DNA of 16,862 nucleotides from positions 1-16,862 of the forward strand of contig JAYEOW010000018.1 of NCBI GenBank assembly GCA_034723395.1, written 5' to 3'. Positions 5,948-16,691 of the stretch are shown piece by piece. The notes under the pieces were generated by a model. It was given only the letters and a program-made list of their open reading frames with translations. It ran no database searches and was not told the origin of the DNA. Made by a program: the position numbers and the translations under genes. The first letter of the stretch is position 1; every line of letters starts with the position of its first letter. This DNA comes from Candidatus Margulisiibacteriota bacterium. GTDB lineage: Bacteria; Margulisbacteria; WOR-1; O2-12-FULL-45-9.

Positions 5948-7870
5948 GTGACAATACTTACTTATAAGGCTCAGGCGGGAAAGATTTTTTGCACCCAAAA
6001 GGGGCGCAATGCCATACGAAGAGTATTGGGCCGGATGCGCCACGGCCGAAGGTTGAGATCGATAATGACGCGGGAATCCGAGCTTAATTTACGCGCCTTG
6101 TCTTACACGCGGCCTAATACGACCCGCGCCTTTTTGAAAGGGTTGGCCAGGTTGGACAGTTTGGCCATCCCAGTTGAAGGGATTGTAGTTCCCAGAGCGT
6201 TGGGGGAGACTCAAAACCGCGGATTATTTTCCCGGTTGGGCAGTGTAAGATCACTGGTCCATCTTATTGATGAAAATGGCGTTTTAAATCTCCGCGCTGA
6301 ACGGGCAGGATTAAAGCATAAACTGGGATATATTGATCTTACGCCAAACCATAAGCCATTTACCCTCGGGGATTATCAAAAAGTCCTGGAAGAATCTTAT
6401 GCGGTTTTCGAAAAGGAGCAAAGCGGGGAGTTGGGAAACCTCTTTTTATTTAAAATATTACTGCGGGCGAGAATTGACCTGTACCGCGCGGGTGAAAGAC
6501 GCTCGGCGCGTAAACTAAAAGGAGAAGCTGTCGGCCTGACCCGTGAGATGCAGAGGATAAAAGGACACTTGGCTTATGTGGCCAATAATTTTCCTTTTGG
6601 GACAGCGGTAGAAAGAGAGAGGGCCAAGCAAGGGGTCGAGCGGACGGTAGAGCTGATGGGCAAAAAGAATAATACGGCGGCTAATTCTAAACTGGTTTCT
6701 TTAACAACTAATCTGGAAAGACTGCTTGAAAGCCAGGGAAGAGAGCGATTGGCAAGGACTCGAAGGGCTTCGGATCCGGGCAGGCTGAAGTTGAGATATG
6801 ACCGGGGAATGTGGAGGGTGAGGCAGGAGGGGTACAAAAGGAGCCGGGTAAGTTTGTTGACCAAGGGGGATATCGATCATGGCGTGTCGAACGCGAAATT
6901 ATTGAGCAGGATAGAGCATCAAATTGAAAGCATCAGCGAAGAGATAGTCCGGAATCGGATGTTTATTGAAGAATTAACTTATATAAGAGGGCATTTGCCG
7001 GATAACCTGGATGGCCTTTTCGAAATTTATCTCACCTTCACAAATTATTTTAATCGGCATAAGGAAAAGGCCTGCGCGGAAATCGAAGGGGCGTGGCAGC
7101 TGGCGGCGATCGGCACCCTCCAGGCGCTTAACCTGGCTAAAGGTTTAATGAACCTGGCGATCAAAGATATAAAGTTAAGGCAGGCAAACTTGGAGGTCCA
7201 GGGAAAAAGATTGGAAGGCTTTTACTCGCACACGGAGGGGAGAATGGCAGAGATCATGGTCCGTTTTGCTGAAAGTGTGGCCAGAGATTTGTCCGCGCCG
7301 CAAATATTTTCAGGAGAAGCGGGCCTGGGGAATATTGACAGGCGGTTAGGTGGTTTTTTGGGGACATTTTTCAGGGGGGAGATGCGGGAGAAATGGTTGA
7401 AAAGGGCAAAAAGCAGGGTGGTGGGAACGAAAAATGCGCTTTCGGGCATCACTGAGCTGGTCCGGCAGAAAAAAGAAAAGATGGGTGAAGTCGTAGAGAA
7501 AAGGAATACTTATCTTGCCCGACGGGATGAGTTTATTAACTTTGGAGGGGATCTCGAACTTTTTAGGGAAGAGGAATTGGCCCAGGTAAGGCAGGCCCTT
7601 GCCGGGATTAACGAGCTGAACGATGGGATTGAAGTCGCCCTGCTTAAAGCGTCCAGGTTTATTTTAAAGATGGGGTTGGATTATGCGAACCGGAGGGATG
7701 AGGCGATGTGTAAGACAGCGTATTTTAACGGTTATCGGTTTGAGCTCCACCGTTTTAGATTGTTAGGCATTGATCAGGTAACGATCAAAGGCTCAAGAGG
7801 AGAAAATATTGGGATAGCGTTAAGAGGGGAAGCTCAGGCGATGGGCCTTCGGTTCCAGGAATTAGCCTAG
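5948..7870 (+). CDS. Hypothetical protein, 640 aa, Arg-rich, predicted mostly alpha-helical
   Basis: Long ORF filling the gap between rsmH and gatB. No recognisable catalytic motif, signal peptide or TM segment. GTG start, exact start uncertain. Overlaps the gatB 3' end by 9 nt. Confidence 0.75.
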   Translation: MTILTYKAQAGKIFCTQKGRNAIRRVLGRMRHGRRLRSIMTRESELNLRALSYTRPNTTRAFLKGLARLDSLAIPVEGIVVPRALGETQNRGLFSRLGSVRSLVHLIDENGVLNLRAERAGLKHKLGYIDLTPNHKPFTLGDYQKVLEESYAVFEKEQSGELGNLFLFKILLRARIDLYRAGERRSARKLKGEAVGLTREMQRIKGHLAYVANNFPFGTAVERERAKQGVERTVELMGKKNNTAANSKLVSLTTNLERLLESQGRERLARTRRASDPGRLKLRYDRGMWRVRQEGYKRSRVSLLTKGDIDHGVSNAKLLSRIEHQIESISEEIVRNRMFIEELTYIRGHLPDNLDGLFEIYLTFTNYFNRHKEKACAEIEGAWQLAAIGTLQALNLAKGLMNLAIKDIKLRQANLEVQGKRLEGFYSHTEGRMAEIMVRFAESVARDLSAPQIFSGEAGLGNIDRRLGGFLGTFFRGEMREKWLKRAKSRVVGTKNALSGITELVRQKKEKMGEVVEKRNTYLARRDEFINFGGDLELFREEELAQVRQALAGINELNDGIEVALLKASRFILKMGLDYANRRDEAMCKTAYFNGYRFELHRFRLLGIDQVTIKGSRGENIGIALRGEAQAMGLRFQELA

Positions 7871-9312: not shown

Positions 9313-11100
9313 TTATATCTTATTTTCGGGGTCTAATGAAGAGGGGATGGTCCCTTTTTCGAGCAGGGCTTTAAATTGCTTATAGTTGATCTCGTCCAGA
9401 TCGAGCCAGAGGAGTTTATCGACATAATAGATAAAACCGACATATTTTTGCTGGTCGCGCTTTACCAAAAGAATTTTTCCCGGTTCAAGCTCGATCACCA
9501 GGTCGTAACCAGCCCACTTCCCGGTAGGGGAGAGAAGCTTGGGAGCTTTAACCCGGATCGGCCCGGCCGCCTTTATTTTTTCGGCGATCAATCTTTTTGT
9601 CTCGCTCTTTATGATATTTCCGGCATATTTATTAACCAGCTTTTTAACTTCGGCATCCAGGACTTTGGCGGCCGCTTTTTTCAGGGCAGCTTCATCGACG
9701 GTGCTTAATGCTTTTTTAGTTACGGTCTCTTTAGCGACACTTTGTAACGCCGCTTTATCGACTGCTTTAAGCGCTTCATTTTTAACTGCTTGTTTGGCGA
9801 TTCGCCAGAGGGCGTCTTTGTCCATCAGGTATCTAACCCGATCTTCAATTACCTTAATACTTTTCCGTTCGACGATCTTTACCATCTCCGCCGTAGGGAT
9901 CCGGGCCATAATTATCTTTCTGGTCTCTTTTTCGATAACTTTTGGGGCTTCCTGACTTACGATTTTTTTAATCTCATTTTTAATGACGCTAAGGCCCTTT
10001 CCTGCGGGCAGGTCCCGTGCAATTATCTTTTCGACCTCTTTTTCCAGGATCTTTGGCGCCTCGGTTTTTAACAAAGCGATAATTTTCTTGTCGGGATAAT
10101 TTTCTTTTATAGCTTGCTGTGCTTCTTCTCTAAATATTCTGGGCGCCTCTTTGCTGATATATCCCTGCGCTTCGTATTTGATTATCTCTTTGGCATCCTT
10201 AACGATTATCTTGTTTGCCTCTTTTTCCACGATCTTTTTTAGCTCGCGTTTGGGGATACGCCTTTCAATATCCCTGACTGCCTGCTTTCTTACCAGCTCT
10301 TTTAGCTCTTTTTTGGGGACTTTGGTTTCGATATATTTTCTTGCTTCGCCTTCGATGATTTTTTGTGCTTTCTTCTCGACAATTAATATCGCTTCCTGCT
10401 GGATAACCTGCTTAGCATCCCGCTCCATGACTATGGCTGCCTCTTTGGTTGAGATCTCTTTTTGGGCGAACCGCTCTTTTAGCCGGTCCCACCATCCTTT
10501 GGCTTGCGGTTTCTTTTCCTGCCGGGTCCCTTTGGGGAGGGTAACCTTAATTGCGATGACTTCGGGGGAGCCTTTCTTTAAGACCGCCTTAAGAGTTGTC
10601 GTCCGGGTGGTTTTTTTTGGGGCCGGTTTTTGTCTTGCCGCCCGCTTTTTAGCCAGCTTTGTTTTTTTCTCTTTGCTGGTTTCCCGCTCGACTATTTTAA
10701 AAAATTCTTCCTGGGGGATATTGACTTTAAATGTTTTTTGCGCCCGCGGGTGGCGGATGACCAGATATTTTTTTATAAAGCGGAGACCCTTATAACGGGT
10801 CTCGATAGTAAGATATTTTTGGCCTTCATTTAGGGTTACTTTTGTTTTGAAGATAAGATTTTTGCTAATCGGGACCGGGCTTCCGTTTACCAGGACCAAT
10901 TCTACTCCCGGCGCAGCTTGACCATAAACATCTCCTTCGATCTTGTAAAAATAGGTGATATCGTACTTTTTGCCGCTGATCTTGACCGGCTCAAAATCTT
11001 TGGCAATGGAAAAACTTGCGGTGAAGAAAAAAATAGACAACAGACTTATGAGGATTAAGCCTTTAATCCAGGCATTTGCTATTTTTTGAGTTATCCTCAA
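9313..11100 (-). CDS. Hypothetical exported or membrane-anchored protein with a beta-rich domain and a long 8-residue helical repeat region
   Basis: N-terminal hydrophobic segment (LILISLLSIFFFTASFSIA), beta-rich Ig-like-looking segment (IEGDV...LVLVNG...FKTKVTLNEGQKYLTIE), Lys-rich linker, repeats such as KEANKIIV KDAKEIIK YEAQGYIS KEAPRIFR EEAQQAIK, and a small C-terminal beta domain. TTG start. Confidence 0.78.
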   Translation of the reverse strand: MRITQKIANAWIKGLILISLLSIFFFTASFSIAKDFEPVKISGKKYDITYFYKIEGDVYGQAAPGVELVLVNGSPVPISKNLIFKTKVTLNEGQKYLTIETRYKGLRFIKKYLVIRHPRAQKTFKVNIPQEEFFKIVERETSKEKKTKLAKKRAARQKPAPKKTTRTTTLKAVLKKGSPEVIAIKVTLPKGTRQEKKPQAKGWWDRLKERFAQKEISTKEAAIVMERDAKQVIQQEAILIVEKKAQKIIEGEARKYIETKVPKKELKELVRKQAVRDIERRIPKRELKKIVEKEANKIIVKDAKEIIKYEAQGYISKEAPRIFREEAQQAIKENYPDKKIIALLKTEAPKILEKEVEKIIARDLPAGKGLSVIKNEIKKIVSQEAPKVIEKETRKIIMARIPTAEMVKIVERKSIKVIEDRVRYLMDKDALWRIAKQAVKNEALKAVDKAALQSVAKETVTKKALSTVDEAALKKAAAKVLDAEVKKLVNKYAGNIIKSETKRLIAEKIKAAGPIRVKAPKLLSPTGKWAGYDLVIELEPGKILLVKRDQQKYVGFIYYVDKLLWLDLDEINYKQFKALLEKGTIPSSLDPENKI

Positions 11101-12880: not shown

Positions 12881-14164
12881 TTAAAGGGGAAGTGTGAAGT
12901 GGATGGTTGTTCCCTGGTTTCTTCCATCCGAGACCGCCCACATCTTTCCGCCGTGGGCTTCGACGATTGTTTTTGAGAGAGAGAGCCCCAGCCCTGTTCC
13001 TCTAAGGGACGGATTTTCTCTGGTAGCGCGAAAGAATTTTTTGAAGATGTTAGGGAGGTCTCCCGGCTCGACCCCGTAACCCTCATCGCGGACGGAAACA
13101 TTGGCCTTATTTTCTAACAATTGGGTTGAAACAAATATCTTGCCGGCCGGATTGGAAAATTTTATCGCGTTCGATAAAAGGTTGATCAATACTTCAGTGA
13201 TCCTGGTTTCGTCCATCGGGACATTGGTTAAATTGGGATCCAGCTCTTTTACGATCAACAGGTTCTTTTCGTCAATTTGCGGTTTCATCTCATCTAGAGC
13301 GTTTTCGACAAGGTTATGTAAAGGGAGGGATTCTTTTTTTATCGTTACACTGCCCGATTCGAGGCGGGCGATGTTTAACATGTCGTTAATAAGGCGGAGC
13401 ATCCGTTTTGATTGGCGTTTAACAATTTCTAAGATATCCAATTGTTTTTTTTGCAGCTCTCCAAATCCGCCTTGGACCAGGATATCGGTATAGCCCATAA
13501 TCGAAGTGAGCGGGCTTTTGGCCTCATGCATCATCTGGTTCATAAAATCCTCCCGGGATTTAGTCAGCCTTTCGATCTCATGTTGCTTTTCTTTGAATTT
13601 GTCGGATAGAAATGAGGCCGCGTAAATAAGGAGCGCGCAGCAGAAGAAAAGGCCGAACCCCCTTGAGATGACGTAATTGAAATCAGTATATAAATTTCCG
13701 GGCAGATGGCTAAGCCGGTAGTGGGGGATTATATGTTGGGCCTCCAGCAGGCAGAGGAACATAAAGATCGCGCTCCACTCCACAGTCACAAAAAATGCCA
13801 AACCGATAAACCCAAAAAGAGAAATAGTTAAAAACTCAACCAGATAGAGCAGGGAAAAAGGGCTTTCGATCCCGCCGGTAAAGTGGATCAGAAGGGTAAC
13901 GACGGTGAGATCCACATTTACCCTGAAGAAGGTGAAAAGGACGCTTTCAGAAAAGATTTTGTATTTCATGACCAGGAATGGGTAGATACTGTTATAGAGG
14001 GCAGAGAGGGTAACGATACCAACAAGGGTGACGATCGGGATATCGAACCTTGCTACTGCGGTCAGGAAGAAAAGGATGGCGCTGATTACGGCAATTGCCC
14101 CCCAGCGGATGCGGATAAACCAGAGAACCCTTAGCTGGTCTTCAGTAAGTTTTTGATCTGCCAT
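12881..14164 (-). CDS. Membrane sensor histidine kinase (multi-TM N-terminal domain, HisKA + HATPase_c)
   Basis: About 5-6 hydrophobic helices with RIRW and TGGIESPF (PilS/RegB-like membrane domain), H-box HEAKSPLTSI, N-box NLLSNAIKF, G1 DEGYG, F-box IFKKFF, G2 GTGLGL. Confidence 0.93.
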   Translation of the reverse strand: MADQKLTEDQLRVLWFIRIRWGAIAVISAILFFLTAVARFDIPIVTLVGIVTLSALYNSIYPFLVMKYKIFSESVLFTFFRVNVDLTVVTLLIHFTGGIESPFSLLYLVEFLTISLFGFIGLAFFVTVEWSAIFMFLCLLEAQHIIPHYRLSHLPGNLYTDFNYVISRGFGLFFCCALLIYAASFLSDKFKEKQHEIERLTKSREDFMNQMMHEAKSPLTSIMGYTDILVQGGFGELQKKQLDILEIVKRQSKRMLRLINDMLNIARLESGSVTIKKESLPLHNLVENALDEMKPQIDEKNLLIVKELDPNLTNVPMDETRITEVLINLLSNAIKFSNPAGKIFVSTQLLENKANVSVRDEGYGVEPGDLPNIFKKFFRATRENPSLRGTGLGLSLSKTIVEAHGGKMWAVSDGRNQGTTIHFTLPL

Positions 14165-14180
14165 TTCTGGCCCAATTATA

Positions 14181-15254
14181 TTATACCAGCCTTAAGCTGG
14201 CAACCGGGGAAAGTTTAACCCCCTCTTTTTTTCTCCCCCTTATTAAGGGGGAGACAGAGAGGGGGTGATAGAAGGCTGCACACCCGACCATGGCGGCGTT
14301 ATCGGTGCAGAGCGCGAGGGGAGGGGTGTGGACCTTGATCTTTTCTTTTTTGCATCGAGCAGTTAATTCTTCTCGGAGTTGTGAGTTTGCCGAAACGCCT
14401 CCCGCCAGCGCGATCGTTTTGCATTTGTTTTCTTTTGCCGCGCGGATCGTTTTTTCGACCAGGACATCGACCACTGCTTGTTGGAAGGAGGCGGCAATAT
14501 CGGTTACCGGTTTGCCAGTTTGCCGGTTTGCCTGTTTATTAACGTAATTTACTACAGCAGTCTTTATGCCGCTAAAGCTGAAATCGAATCCTTGATTAAG
14601 CATTGGCCTAGTAAAACTTATTGCTTTGGGATTCCCTTCTTTTGCCAGCTTATCGATAATCGGTCCGCCGGGATAGCCCAGCTTTAGAAAACGGGCGACT
14701 TTGTCGAATGCTTCTCCTGCCGCGTCATCTCTAGTTCTACCTAATGACTCGTATTTCCCGTGATCTTTAACCAGGACCAGCATTGTATGTCCTCCGGAAA
14801 CAATCAAGCAAACAAACGGGAACCTCACCCCCTCCCTTCGGGTTTCCCCCTCTCCATTGGAAATGGAGAGGGGGACAGAAGGGGGTGAGGAAAGAAAATT
14901 AGCATAAATGTGTGCTTCGTGGTGGTTAACGCCAATTAATGGGATGTCGAGCGAGTAGGCGATCGATTTTGCGGCGCAGAGTCCGACTAAAAGGGAGCCG
15001 ACCAGTCCCGGGCCATAAGTTACCGCAACTGCATCGAGCTCTTTGAACTTTGTCTTTGCCTTCTCTAATGCCTCTTTAATAATCGGGTTGATCACTTCGA
15101 TATGTTTACGCGAAGCGACCTCGGGGACGATCCCCCCATATTTTTTATGGAACTCAACCTGGGTAGCTACAATGTTAGAAAGGGTTCTTTTCCCATCCTT
15201 AACTACCGCCGCCGAAGTTTCATCGCACGAAGTCTCGATTGCCAGGATTTTCAT
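14181..15254 (-). CDS. tsaD: tRNA N6-threonylcarbamoyltransferase TsaD (Gcp/YgjD), with in-frame repeat-derived insertions
   Basis: LAIETSCDETSAAV, GGIVPEVASRKH, GPGLVGSL, HHEAH, VSGGHT, DDAAGEAFDKVAR, YPGGP, FSFSGIKT, GGVSAN, CTDNAAMV. Confidence 0.97.
   Translation of the reverse strand: MKILAIETSCDETSAAVVKDGKRTLSNIVATQVEFHKKYGGIVPEVASRKHIEVINPIIKEALEKAKTKFKELDAVAVTYGPGLVGSLLVGLCAAKSIAYSLDIPLIGVNHHEAHIYANFLSSPPSVPLSISNGEGETRREGVRFPFVCLIVSGGHTMLVLVKDHGKYESLGRTRDDAAGEAFDKVARFLKLGYPGGPIIDKLAKEGNPKAISFTRPMLNQGFDFSFSGIKTAVVNYVNKQANRQTGKPVTDIAASFQQAVVDVLVEKTIRAAKENKCKTIALAGGVSANSQLREELTARCKKEKIKVHTPPLALCTDNAAMVGCAAFYHPLSVSPLIRGRKKEGVKLSPVASLRLV
14218..14266. repeat. REP-like palindromic element A inside the 3' end of tsaD
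   Basis: Outer stem ACCCCCTCT (14218-14226) / AGAGGGGGT (14258-14266). Inner stem TCTCCCCCTT (14232-14241) / AAGGGGGAGA (14245-14254). Translated in tsaD as HPLSVSPLIRGRKKEGV. Confidence 0.8.
14502..14537. repeat. 8-bp tandem repeat (GTTTGCCN) inside tsaD
   Basis: ggttaccg-gtttgcca-gtttgccg-gtttgcct-gttt, encoding KQANRQTGKPVT on the minus strand. Confidence 0.8.
14823..14890. repeat. REP-like palindromic element B inside tsaD
   Basis: Outer 11-bp stem CCTCACCCCCT (14823-14833) / AGGGGGTGAGG (14880-14890). Inner 14-bp stem TCCCCCTCTCCATT (14845-14858) / AATGGAGAGGGGGA (14862-14875). Translated as SSPPSVPLSISNGEGETRREGVR. Confidence 0.88.
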
Positions 15255-15262
15255 ATTATAAA

Positions 15263-15271
15263 ATTATAGCA
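15263..15271 (-). promoter_or_regulatory. Extended -10 (TGCTATAAT) for tsaD
   Basis: Minus-strand TGCTATAAT ends 8 nt before the tsaD ATG. No SD. Confidence 0.55.
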
Positions 15272-15355
15272 TATTTGGGTAAGGGGAAGGCCGGCTCGTC
15301 AGCAAGAAGAATATGAGAGGCACAGATAGATAGTCTATTTAGGCGGTTGAGGCGC

Positions 15356-16063
15356 CTATTGGTTTTTGTTATCCAGTTTCAGCTTGAGCAAGAAAATTGT
15401 TTCCATTCTAAGTTTTGACTTAACCCATGCCTTCTGTTTATCATTAACAAGCTCGCCAATACCGGACAAAATGTTCCGGTTGCTCGTTTTCTCAAGCAGA
15501 TGAATGCATTTCCGCAGAAAATCTTTGAATGATATCCTGGCGCGTTTTTCCACGATTTCTTTGTTTACGGGCCAGTTATGCTGGAGAAAAAAACAAACAT
15601 CAAAAATATCGCGGTTTGTTTTGCCAATTCTTTCGCTCATCGCGACGAGCTTGTGGGCTGCCATGTCTTCTTTAACCATCACCTTCATTGAGATGCCGAG
15701 GTGCGTCTTCACCTCGTACTTTGAGCCGAAATTTCTACGGTTTATTTCTACCTTAATATTCCTGGCACCCTGAACCTTGTCGGTGTAGGACAGCAAGTAA
15801 AACAGGTTGTATCTTTTTTCCCGAGCTTCTTTTACCGTTCCATAGTCCGCCAGGATTTTCTTAACCTGTTCAAAAATATGTTTTTCTTTGGTTTCATCAA
15901 GCAGATCAAAATCAAGATCCACTGAAAAACGCTCCAGACCGTAAAGAAAATAGGCGGCCGTGCCGCCCTTAAAGCCTAAAAAGGGCCCGATAGATGTGTC
16001 AGTATAGATATCTTTGAGAATTCTTAAAAGGATGTTTTTATGTGTTGCTGTGTCTAAGCTCAT
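15356..16063 (-). CDS. abiEii: AbiEii/AbiGii-family nucleotidyltransferase toxin (type IV TA / abortive infection)
   Basis: FKGGTAAYFLYGLERFSVDLDF (GG...RFSxDLD Pol-beta NTase motif), KVEIN, AHKLVA, RDIFD. ATGA overlap with the upstream antitoxin gene. Confidence 0.9.
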   Translation of the reverse strand: MSLDTATHKNILLRILKDIYTDTSIGPFLGFKGGTAAYFLYGLERFSVDLDFDLLDETKEKHIFEQVKKILADYGTVKEAREKRYNLFYLLSYTDKVQGARNIKVEINRRNFGSKYEVKTHLGISMKVMVKEDMAAHKLVAMSERIGKTNRDIFDVCFFLQHNWPVNKEIVEKRARISFKDFLRKCIHLLEKTSNRNILSGIGELVNDKQKAWVKSKLRMETIFLLKLKLDNKNQ

Positions 16064-16644
16064 TTATTGTTAGCCTTAAAAGCTTGGTAATATTCCTTCA
16101 CGTTTTTTGTCATTCGTTTGTTATCGTACATTGGTAGCATTGCGAATGCCTTGTCCCAGTCCACGGGAGATAAATTGTCAAAATAATAATCTTTATTGAG
16201 GTAGATAATATCCAGAAAAGCCCTTTCTTTTGTGGCAATGGAATAATTGTTCTTGTCTTCAACACCAACATTATTAGTTAGAATATCGTCTTTGATTTTT
16301 TTAAATGAGTAAGTCTGCCCGTCGCAGACAATCTCTTTGGCCTGATAGGAAGCAACAAAAACCTGACCGTAATGCTGGAAGATAATCCCCGCCTCTGCCA
16401 GGACAGTTTCAAAACTTACGTAAGAGGGAGCAAGTATCTTTGTTGCCAGTTCGAGCTTATTATAATTTTTGTCTTTTGCATAAAGCCCCCGCCGAATCCC
16501 GTATAGTTGGCCATGAGAGGTGTAATAATTGAGCCTCCGCTTCAAGAGCGCGGGGTTATTTTCCCCCGAAGCGAGCAGAATATCCTTGAAAGAAAAAACG
16601 GTCTTATCTGAACGTAAAATATTTAAAATATTTGATTTTCCCAT
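16060..16644 (-). CDS. abiEi: AbiEi-family antitoxin / transcriptional regulator
   Basis: N-terminal winged HTH ending IRRGLY, PSYVSFETVL...GII, IATKERAFLDIIY. ATG 16644 is preferred over the ORF-track TTG 16668. Confidence 0.85.
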   Translation of the reverse strand: MGKSNILNILRSDKTVFSFKDILLASGENNPALLKRRLNYYTSHGQLYGIRRGLYAKDKNYNKLELATKILAPSYVSFETVLAEAGIIFQHYGQVFVASYQAKEIVCDGQTYSFKKIKDDILTNNVGVEDKNNYSIATKERAFLDIIYLNKDYYFDNLSPVDWDKAFAMLPMYDNKRMTKNVKEYYQAFKANNK

Positions 16645-16666
16645 GTTTATTCGCTTTATGAGAGTC

Positions 16667-16691
16667 AAAGGTTACGTATAATGTTACCTTT
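16667..16691. promoter_or_regulatory. Imperfect inverted repeat, candidate AbiEi operator
   Basis: AAAGGTTACGT (16667-16677) versus the reverse complement of 16681-16691, AAAGGTAACAT: 9 of 11 match. Lies just downstream of the predicted transcription start. Confidence 0.6.

Follow-up and report, generated by a model that had tools for sequence, protein, structure and literature searches.

We propose that the palindrome at positions 14823–14890, read in frame inside the tsaD gene of a Candidatus Margulisiibacteriota bacterium, is a copy, without a gene, of a dispersed BoxC-like hairpin repeat, tolerated as a likely neutral loop and likely spread, or left behind, by a DUF559 cassette; we consider this reading probable, with room for others. 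The window analyzed is the whole stretch of 16,862 nucleotides that holds this gene, and G000 denotes the genome carrying it.

The element is a type-I nested palindrome with no assigned strand, whose in-frame reading on the minus strand supplies most of TsaD residues 122–144. An 11-bp outer arm (14823–14833), of the kind that bounds DUF559 cassettes, pairs with the other 11-bp arm (14880–14890), and together they enclose an inner hairpin (14845–14875) with a perfect 14-bp stem (14845–14858 with 14862–14875) and a 3-nt loop; there is an additional 3-bp side stem. The type-I core of this hairpin is also seen flanking type-I DUF559 genes. DNA folding of the element gives −28.4/−28.8 kcal/mol (z −6.2/−6.7), which none of 200 shuffles equaled on either strand, and the 68-bp nested palindrome described in the original prediction, with its 11-bp outer and 14-bp inner stems, was thus borne out at z of about −6. 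The 23 codons between HHEAHIYANFL and FPFVCLIVSGGHT amount to 69 nt, i.e., one T plus the 68-bp element, so element and single base provide all 23 residues between the NFL and FPF of TsaD; as claimed, the palindrome is essentially the whole stretch. The native linker was also expected to be short, and it is: 6 aa in the solved Thermotoga TsaD chains 6NAK/6N9A (a 17-residue gap relative to this TsaD), 5–6 aa in 25 of 82 orthologs (more than 6 aa in the other 57) and 5–6 aa in 11/11 rows of the outgroup branch. Read against these alignments, the element replaces the old linker, with a net gain of 17–18 aa, and is neither added to it nor splitting it. An Rfam search of 14000–15400 at E values up to 5 returned 25 matches, mostly to generic miRNA hairpin models, with none at gathering score.

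The host gene is an uninterrupted open reading frame of 357 aa on the minus strand (14181–15254) that scores 446.6 bits against TIGR03723, well over the cut-off of 296.1. The HHEAH codons (14910–14924, minus strand; H111–H115) end 6 residues before the insert, which in sequence adjoins the metal motif. H111, E113 and H115, which we take to be the metal ligands, and D318 are among the positions that are invariant in a 41-sequence ortholog alignment and intact in this TsaD. An AlphaFold2 model keeps the fold (mean pLDDT 84.8; TM 0.82 to E. coli TsaD), and pLDDT falls below 50 only at residues 124–139 and 331–357, the segments of two inserts. The main insert is accordingly placed by the model in a loop, as had been anticipated; this loop (124–139) is predicted to be disordered and lies between helix 111–121, which bears H111 and H115, and strand 147–152, with the fold otherwise predicted to be intact. 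The other insert, which the original prediction overlooked, is a nested palindrome of a different subtype, type II, lying in frame in the C-terminal tail (14216–14270, inner stem 14232–14254; aa ~329–347; folding z −5.2/−5.1). It is the sole hairpin outside the main loop site among the tsaD genes scanned for our tree, and it is likely younger, since the closest TsaD homologs have ordinary C-terminal tails that lack it.

Several features of the locus deserve a record of their own. TsaD position 112 (14919–14921, minus strand) is His, as part of HHEAH, where relatives in the lineage have Leu or Ile; in the 7 other HHEAH rows among the 82 TsaD sequences, which come from outside the lineage, the linker is short. 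Directly upstream of tsaD is a two-gene AbiEi/AbiEii-like pair (15356–16668, minus strand), the AbiEi match being weak and AbiEii our own reading. Two further open reading frames without an NCBIfam match lie in the window, one lysine-rich with internal repeats (9313–11100, minus strand, 595 aa) and one on the strand opposite to its neighbors (5948–7870, plus strand, 640 aa). The first 42–46 codons of tsaD are duplicated upstream in G019 and G032, with other genes between, and the 3′ end is duplicated in G014, which suggests that tsaD ends are integration sites; no such duplicate was found in G000.

The loop can be followed through orthologs; relatives that bear a name are Margulisiibacteriota (WOR-1/Saganbacteria). 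In L057, a TsaD of 84% identity that comes from a separate data set, this site is occupied by the same element, whose hairpin centre and spacer differ, and P0083 and P0085 have it too, judged by peptide; across P0083–P0087 and L057 the insert stem is conserved while its centre varies. Type-I cores also occupy the loop in another frame (L059, L083), so that two reading frames of type I exist at this site. A fourth subtype, type IV, is found there in L003, L070, L081, L089 and L090, and peptides point to type II in P0093 and to type III in P0088, P0091 and P0092. Most of the remaining loops carry 7–8-mer tandem repeats or other palindromes. Near relatives have loops of 5–7 aa or unrelated repeats, and the insert peptide varies with frame and family. 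On a tree of 68 distinct TsaD rows built without the loops, loop class changes 18 times, and the well-supported branches force at least two changes for type I and at least three for type IV. The loop is one that has been refilled repeatedly among relatives, by four hairpin subtypes and by 7–8-mer repeats. The latter, unrelated to the hairpins, occupy it more often than hairpins do, and a general loop-filling process may therefore exist. The claim that the palindrome creates a new TsaD peptide loop must be qualified to this extent: the palindrome is in frame, but loop formation is not the work of one family alone, as several unrelated repeats fill the same place. Ortholog loops range from 5 to 36 aa, and a same-length loop shared without palindromic DNA, which would have spoken against the original prediction, did not emerge. 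Two more positions of TsaD vary similarly, one around aa 237 and one in the tail. Heptamer and octamer tandem repeats, together with other palindrome families, are seen in the TsaD loops of L002–L030, and the G000 protein has an 8-mer-periodic loop near aa 237–250.

The element belongs to a large family. Counted by pattern, and hence as lower bounds, G000 contains 67 hairpin cores at 62 loci (22 of type I, 12 of type II, 31 of type III and 2 ambiguous), compared with 1, 0 and 0 in three Markov controls. Of 41 genomes, 28 contain type-I cores, 30 contain type III, and types II and IV are each present in 17, while controls with the pattern reversed stay close to zero; the hairpins are polar (C-left in 58 cases, the reverse in 4), and the elements measure 51–133 bp across subtypes. 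Close intergenic twins of the TsaD element are present in G000 (contig C7) and in G011. A G011 match to TsaD residues 119–151 was considered as a split tsaD and rejected, being an intergenic copy of the repeat. In the type-I stems, three unconstrained positions pair in 45/45, 45/45 and 29/29 cores, with C-G/T-A swaps; this perfect pairing is predicted by selection and also by template-switch correction. No target-site duplication was found at the tsaD element, and flanking repeats of at least 5 bp accompany 4 of 28 two-armed elements against a shuffled mean of 1.7 and maximum of 7, which leaves duplication unsupported.

Most copies avoid coding sequence. Only 21 of the 67 cores fall inside open reading frames and 46 outside, although the ORF set used, a greedy and mechanical one and not an annotation, spans 93% of G000, and the coding copies consequently look like tolerated survivors. 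Within any ORF of at least 90 aa there are 23 cores: 9 N-terminal, 7 C-terminal, 1 doubtful and 6 internal, the last in TsaD, a HemW-like protein (twice), a GltD-like protein, a PMT-like protein and a giant Ig-domain protein. Of the core-bearing proteins scanned, 12/18 score above the Pfam cut-off, and an in-frame core occurs in 13/30 HemW-like orthologs. The same palindrome family is thus found in frame in TsaD (twice), HemW-like (twice), GltD-like, TruB and LarC-like proteins, next to the 46 copies outside ORFs. The search of the genome and its relatives for other copies, on which the original prediction depended, was therefore positive, and the miniature family said to colonize coding sequence is real in that it is gene-less and has in-frame members; it is also mostly extragenic and, lacking target-site duplication, not a classical MITE.

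Gene ends show two recurrent arrangements in G000. Type-III (~106 bp) and type-I elements lie just after likely start codons (C11:4597-4702, C36:5812-5917, C7:84726-84831, C43:29189-29294, C45:20455-20554, C48:6752-6840), where the right arm and a T-rich flank encode the start of a putative hydrophobic signal or membrane segment in SLH, DJ-1/PfpI, Memo-AMMECR1 and YceG proteins. The right arm GGGTGAGG also appears to give the TGA stop codon of several genes (LarB-like, LarC-like, TruB), just before the next start codon (C52:1045-2977, C24:27143-27889, C16:8805-8871); such a stop may explain why the repeat is tolerated between tightly packed genes.

The candidate partner of these hairpins is a small gene. 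All five DUF559 matches of G000 lie beside family hairpins; two, of types II and III, appear intact, and the sole type-I DUF559 found there is internally deleted. Over the genomes, a hairpin lies within ~250 bp of 32/33 DUF559 loci versus 3/61 and 0/54 control windows. Hairpin subtype follows the DUF559 protein tree (52 of 63 hits, 11 short fragments excluded) with 6 changes, against 26.1 for shuffled labels and with 0/200 shuffles as low; by this comparison each hairpin subtype pairs with one DUF559 clade, a concordance that demonstrates a cassette and not mobilization in trans, since flanks and gene are inherited together. The order within the cassette is left arm, hairpin, DUF559, hairpin, right arm. 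The upstream hairpin is preceded by the left outer arm in 36/46 cases and followed by the right arm in 8/46, while the downstream hairpin is followed by the right arm in 36/43 and preceded by the left arm in 4/43, over a background of 2–3%. Given this asymmetry, the cassette corresponds to a solo element whose two arms stand on either side of the gene, each with its own copy of the hairpin; conversely, the solo element is the cassette form with a single hairpin and without the gene. Of the two candidate mobilizers that the original prediction proposed to look for, DUF559 is the one flanked by the same palindromes, whereas RAYT failed. RAYT/Y1 was rejected as a partner because the lone Y1_Tnp fragment of G000, 79 aa long, is flanked by a different repeat. 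That fragment, at C19:37831-38070, has a separate palindromic repeat family at its flanks, and a similar repeat occurs in L164.

Genomes with the cognate clade tend to contain more solo copies: the medians, after subtraction of flanking copies, are 9 versus 2 for type I, 18 versus 2 for type III and 9 versus 0 for type IV. For type II the difference misses significance (p 0.07), and type-III copies also go with clade I (p 0.01); all such p-values are overstated because the genomes are kin. Exceptions exist. G015 (85% complete) and G005 (71% complete) have 56 and 25 cores with no DUF559 found, G036 has 31 type-II cores and no clade-II gene, and G031, with a clade-III gene, yields 0 strict type-III cores.

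An orthologous site captures the cassette in three states. Of 30 loci at the junction of ROK and hisH, 26 lack any hairpin, 3 contain the complete type-I cassette and 1 shows two hairpins without the gene. In the filled sites (L168, L170, L177, L181) the overlap between the two genes is duplicated, over 11, 9 and 8 bp in three and at least 6 bp in the fourth. It may be a duplication of the target, or no more than selection permits, as both genes are kept only with the duplicated overlap.

Whole cassettes also occur in frame, in TsaB, TsaC, MnmE, AroC, PduO and MetRS proteins, and that of TsaB sits at the point aligned with the TsaD loop described here. One protein combining PF00814 and DUF559 (P0031) was considered as a cassette-bearing TsaD and rejected, as it is TsaB. 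No TsaD with a whole DUF559 cassette appeared among the best 120 of 7081 homologs (longest 414 aa), a set that favors insert carriers because the query region contained the insert. We observed that several of the proteins with a cassette or element in frame work on tRNA (TsaB, TsaC, TsaD, MnmE, TruB and MetRS, including P0031, P0045, P0027, P0065 and the G000 TsaD and TruB) and that metabolic enzymes are hit as well (AroC, HisF, PduO).

The DUF559 proteins match PF04480 and the structure 3HRL strongly, and a G000 copy matches 3R3P weakly (E 0.022). A table in PMC3424549 groups DUF559 with VSR, 3HRL, 3R3P and the homing endonuclease I-Bth0305I. The proteins found here, ~125 aa in length, stand between hairpins, and no splicing element was seen with them. 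Among the top-ranked literature matches, taken by their main texts and with subscription journals thinly covered, no link of DUF559 to palindromic or BoxC-type repeats was found.

We infer from these arrangements that DUF559 may be the mobilizer of the hairpins. The nuclease would recognize and nick its cognate hairpin, and the element would then be copied in by repair or recombination, possibly through short matches at the junctions. In an alignment of six copies, the ends of the element itself agree with the conserved Phe-Leu and Phe codons that border the TsaD linker; the idea, drawn from these six sequences, is that the ends supply those codons, which weakly suggests a homology-guided replacement. 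Recombination between the two hairpins would collapse a cassette into a gene-less copy, and selection would retain only those copies that fall between genes, at gene ends or in loops that tolerate them. A selfish role of this kind would have precedent, by analogy, in the Vsr-like homing endonucleases treated in PMC3239194 and PMC2677866.

The same anatomy can be read the other way round: DUF559 could be a parasite of the repeats, a homing-like gene that inserts into hairpin elements and doubles the hairpin, while solo elements spread by host recombination, gene conversion or another enzyme. Insertion into a solo element would produce the cassette just as well as cassette collapse would produce the solo form, repeat-rich genomes with no detected DUF559 exist, and Vsr-like homing endonucleases are described (PMC2677866, PMC3239194). 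Nevertheless, the filled ROK–hisH sites are cassettes or, once, a two-hairpin remnant, and none is a lone solo element; the abundance of solo copies goes with the cognate clade in three of the four subtypes; and the only Y1 transposase fragment in G000 is flanked by a different repeat. We regard the parasite reading as unlikely, though it is the most serious competitor to a cassette-driven spread.

It is less probable still that the repeat-derived loops are adaptive, either because the hairpin acts on mRNA or DNA (pausing, stability, triplex, cruciform) or because the loop is a deliberate variable region. Such a role would fit the retention of the insert across several closely related TsaD clusters, where its stem is conserved and its centre varies (P0083–P0087, L057), the long loops common in the lineage (57/82) and the perfect pairing of the stems. 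It fits poorly with close relatives that do with 5–7 aa or with unrelated repeats, with a peptide that changes with frame and family, and with the strong depletion of copies from ORFs; for TM_ECO, moreover, the main text of PMC4666352 describes in vivo footprinting against a stable triplex and earlier work without promoter or terminator activity. Very improbable, in our judgment, is a local origin by slippage or template switching, or a mis-assembly from another repeat copy. Many sister loops are indeed simple tandem repeats, and the Logan contigs of run X1 break within the palindrome so that no single contig bridges it. However, close intergenic copies exist, the same element occupies the same site in the 84%-identical TsaD of L057 and, by peptide, in P0083 and P0085, and two X1 contigs each span one junction with no difference. 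The X1 DNA contigs over the locus showed no joints or alternative alleles; this support is not independent, as X1 may be the source sample. Local origin and artefact are already largely refuted, and a gene-less copy of a mobile repeat remains our preferred reading.

Taken alone, the TsaD insert is another case of a known phenomenon, coding palindromes being already known as the Rickettsia palindromic elements (RPE). What the present analysis adds is the match of subtype and clade, the split-arm anatomy, the orthologous site in three states and the turnover of the loop. In the literature examined, both the entry of RPE into coding genes and the spread of BoxC/triplex motifs are unexplained. A bolder hypothesis, for which we claim only tentative standing and somewhat less than even chances, is that DUF559–hairpin cassettes form an undescribed class of transposase-free mobile element, in which each clade of a minimal Vsr-like endonuclease would recognize its own hairpin subtype, mobilize the cassette together with its collapsed, gene-less form, leave no target-site duplication and so keep changing the loops, termini and signal peptides of conserved proteins. 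If true, BoxC/triplex-type repeats would thereby gain their missing mobilizer and coding palindromes their mechanism. The locus provides a concrete test system, as four hairpin subtypes, each with a DUF559 clade, make cleavage of cognate and non-cognate hairpins assayable, and a loop of TsaD, a conserved enzyme of tRNA modification, that is refilled by different repeat families is a natural experiment on how selfish DNA becomes protein sequence.

Known systems resemble the element in part. Short (68 bp) and gene-less, with 11-bp arms as terminal inverted repeats, it is MITE-like; it differs in having no target-site duplication, and the gene found to share its ends is DUF559. A second likeness is to REP/RAYT, where a single small gene is flanked by short palindromes of a matching subtype, which also occur in many solo copies and have a GTAG or CGTC tag beside the palindrome. 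The palindromes studied here also flank a single small gene by subtype and occur alone in many copies; in contrast, their partner is a Vsr-like DUF559 where REP/RAYT has a Y1 HUH enzyme, the gene divides the arms asymmetrically, many copies lie in coding sequence, and no GTAG or CGTC tag lies within 14823–14890 on either strand. REP/REPIN palindromes and the RAYT (TnpA-REP) HUH transposases are treated in PMC3333891, PMC2817692 and PMC3733652. With the Vsr-like (EDxHD) homing endonucleases, e.g., I-Bth0305I, DUF559 is grouped in one nuclease clan (PMC3424549), and their selfish spread and insertion into conserved genes (PMC3239194, PMC2677866) would be comparable. As described in the latter two papers, whose main texts do not name DUF559, those enzymes have a separate DNA-binding region and reside in introns or between split inteins, unlike the DUF559 proteins of this lineage.

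In appearance, the element is closest to the BoxC/PIT/TM_ECO repeats of E. coli (Holder et al. 2015, PMC4666352), which have a C-rich stem, a short loop, a G-rich stem and a second G-rich tract, and which that main text portrays as dispersed, of no known function and variable in copy number among relatives. The order of C-rich stem, G-rich stem and second G-rich tract is present in the TsaD element. The strict TM_ECO pattern, CCCTCNCCC N3-6 GGGNGAGGG N3 GGGNGAGGG with at most one mismatch (PMC4666352), has 0 matches in G000 at up to one substitution and 1 at two; the TsaD element fits it only with relaxed loops and 2 substitutions and, unlike TM_ECO, has both outer arms. According to the main text of PMC4666352, where ycjD does not appear, TM_ECO of E. 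coli MG1655 is always intergenic and has no mobile-element association, whereas 21/67 cores lie in ORFs here.

In behavior, the closest parallel is the RPE (Ogata et al. 2000, via Delihas 2007, PMC2229807), described there as palindromes that are intergenic as well as in frame in conserved proteins and roughly neutral, as for the RPE in Gmk. Intergenic and in-frame copies are likewise both found here, and an insert in a surface loop with an intact fold is predicted. Set apart by description, RPE measure 105–146 bp with 12-bp terminal repeats (PMC2229807), against 51–133 bp and several subtypes in our family. Besides length and host, the differences are that several subtypes here vie for the same loops, take the place of native linkers and are accompanied by a candidate nuclease. 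With the strict TM_ECO pattern, the MITE duplication and the RAYT association all failing, we file the element under none of BoxC/TM_ECO, MITE, REP/RAYT or RPE. By analogy, it appears to work like an RPE and to look like BoxC/TM_ECO.
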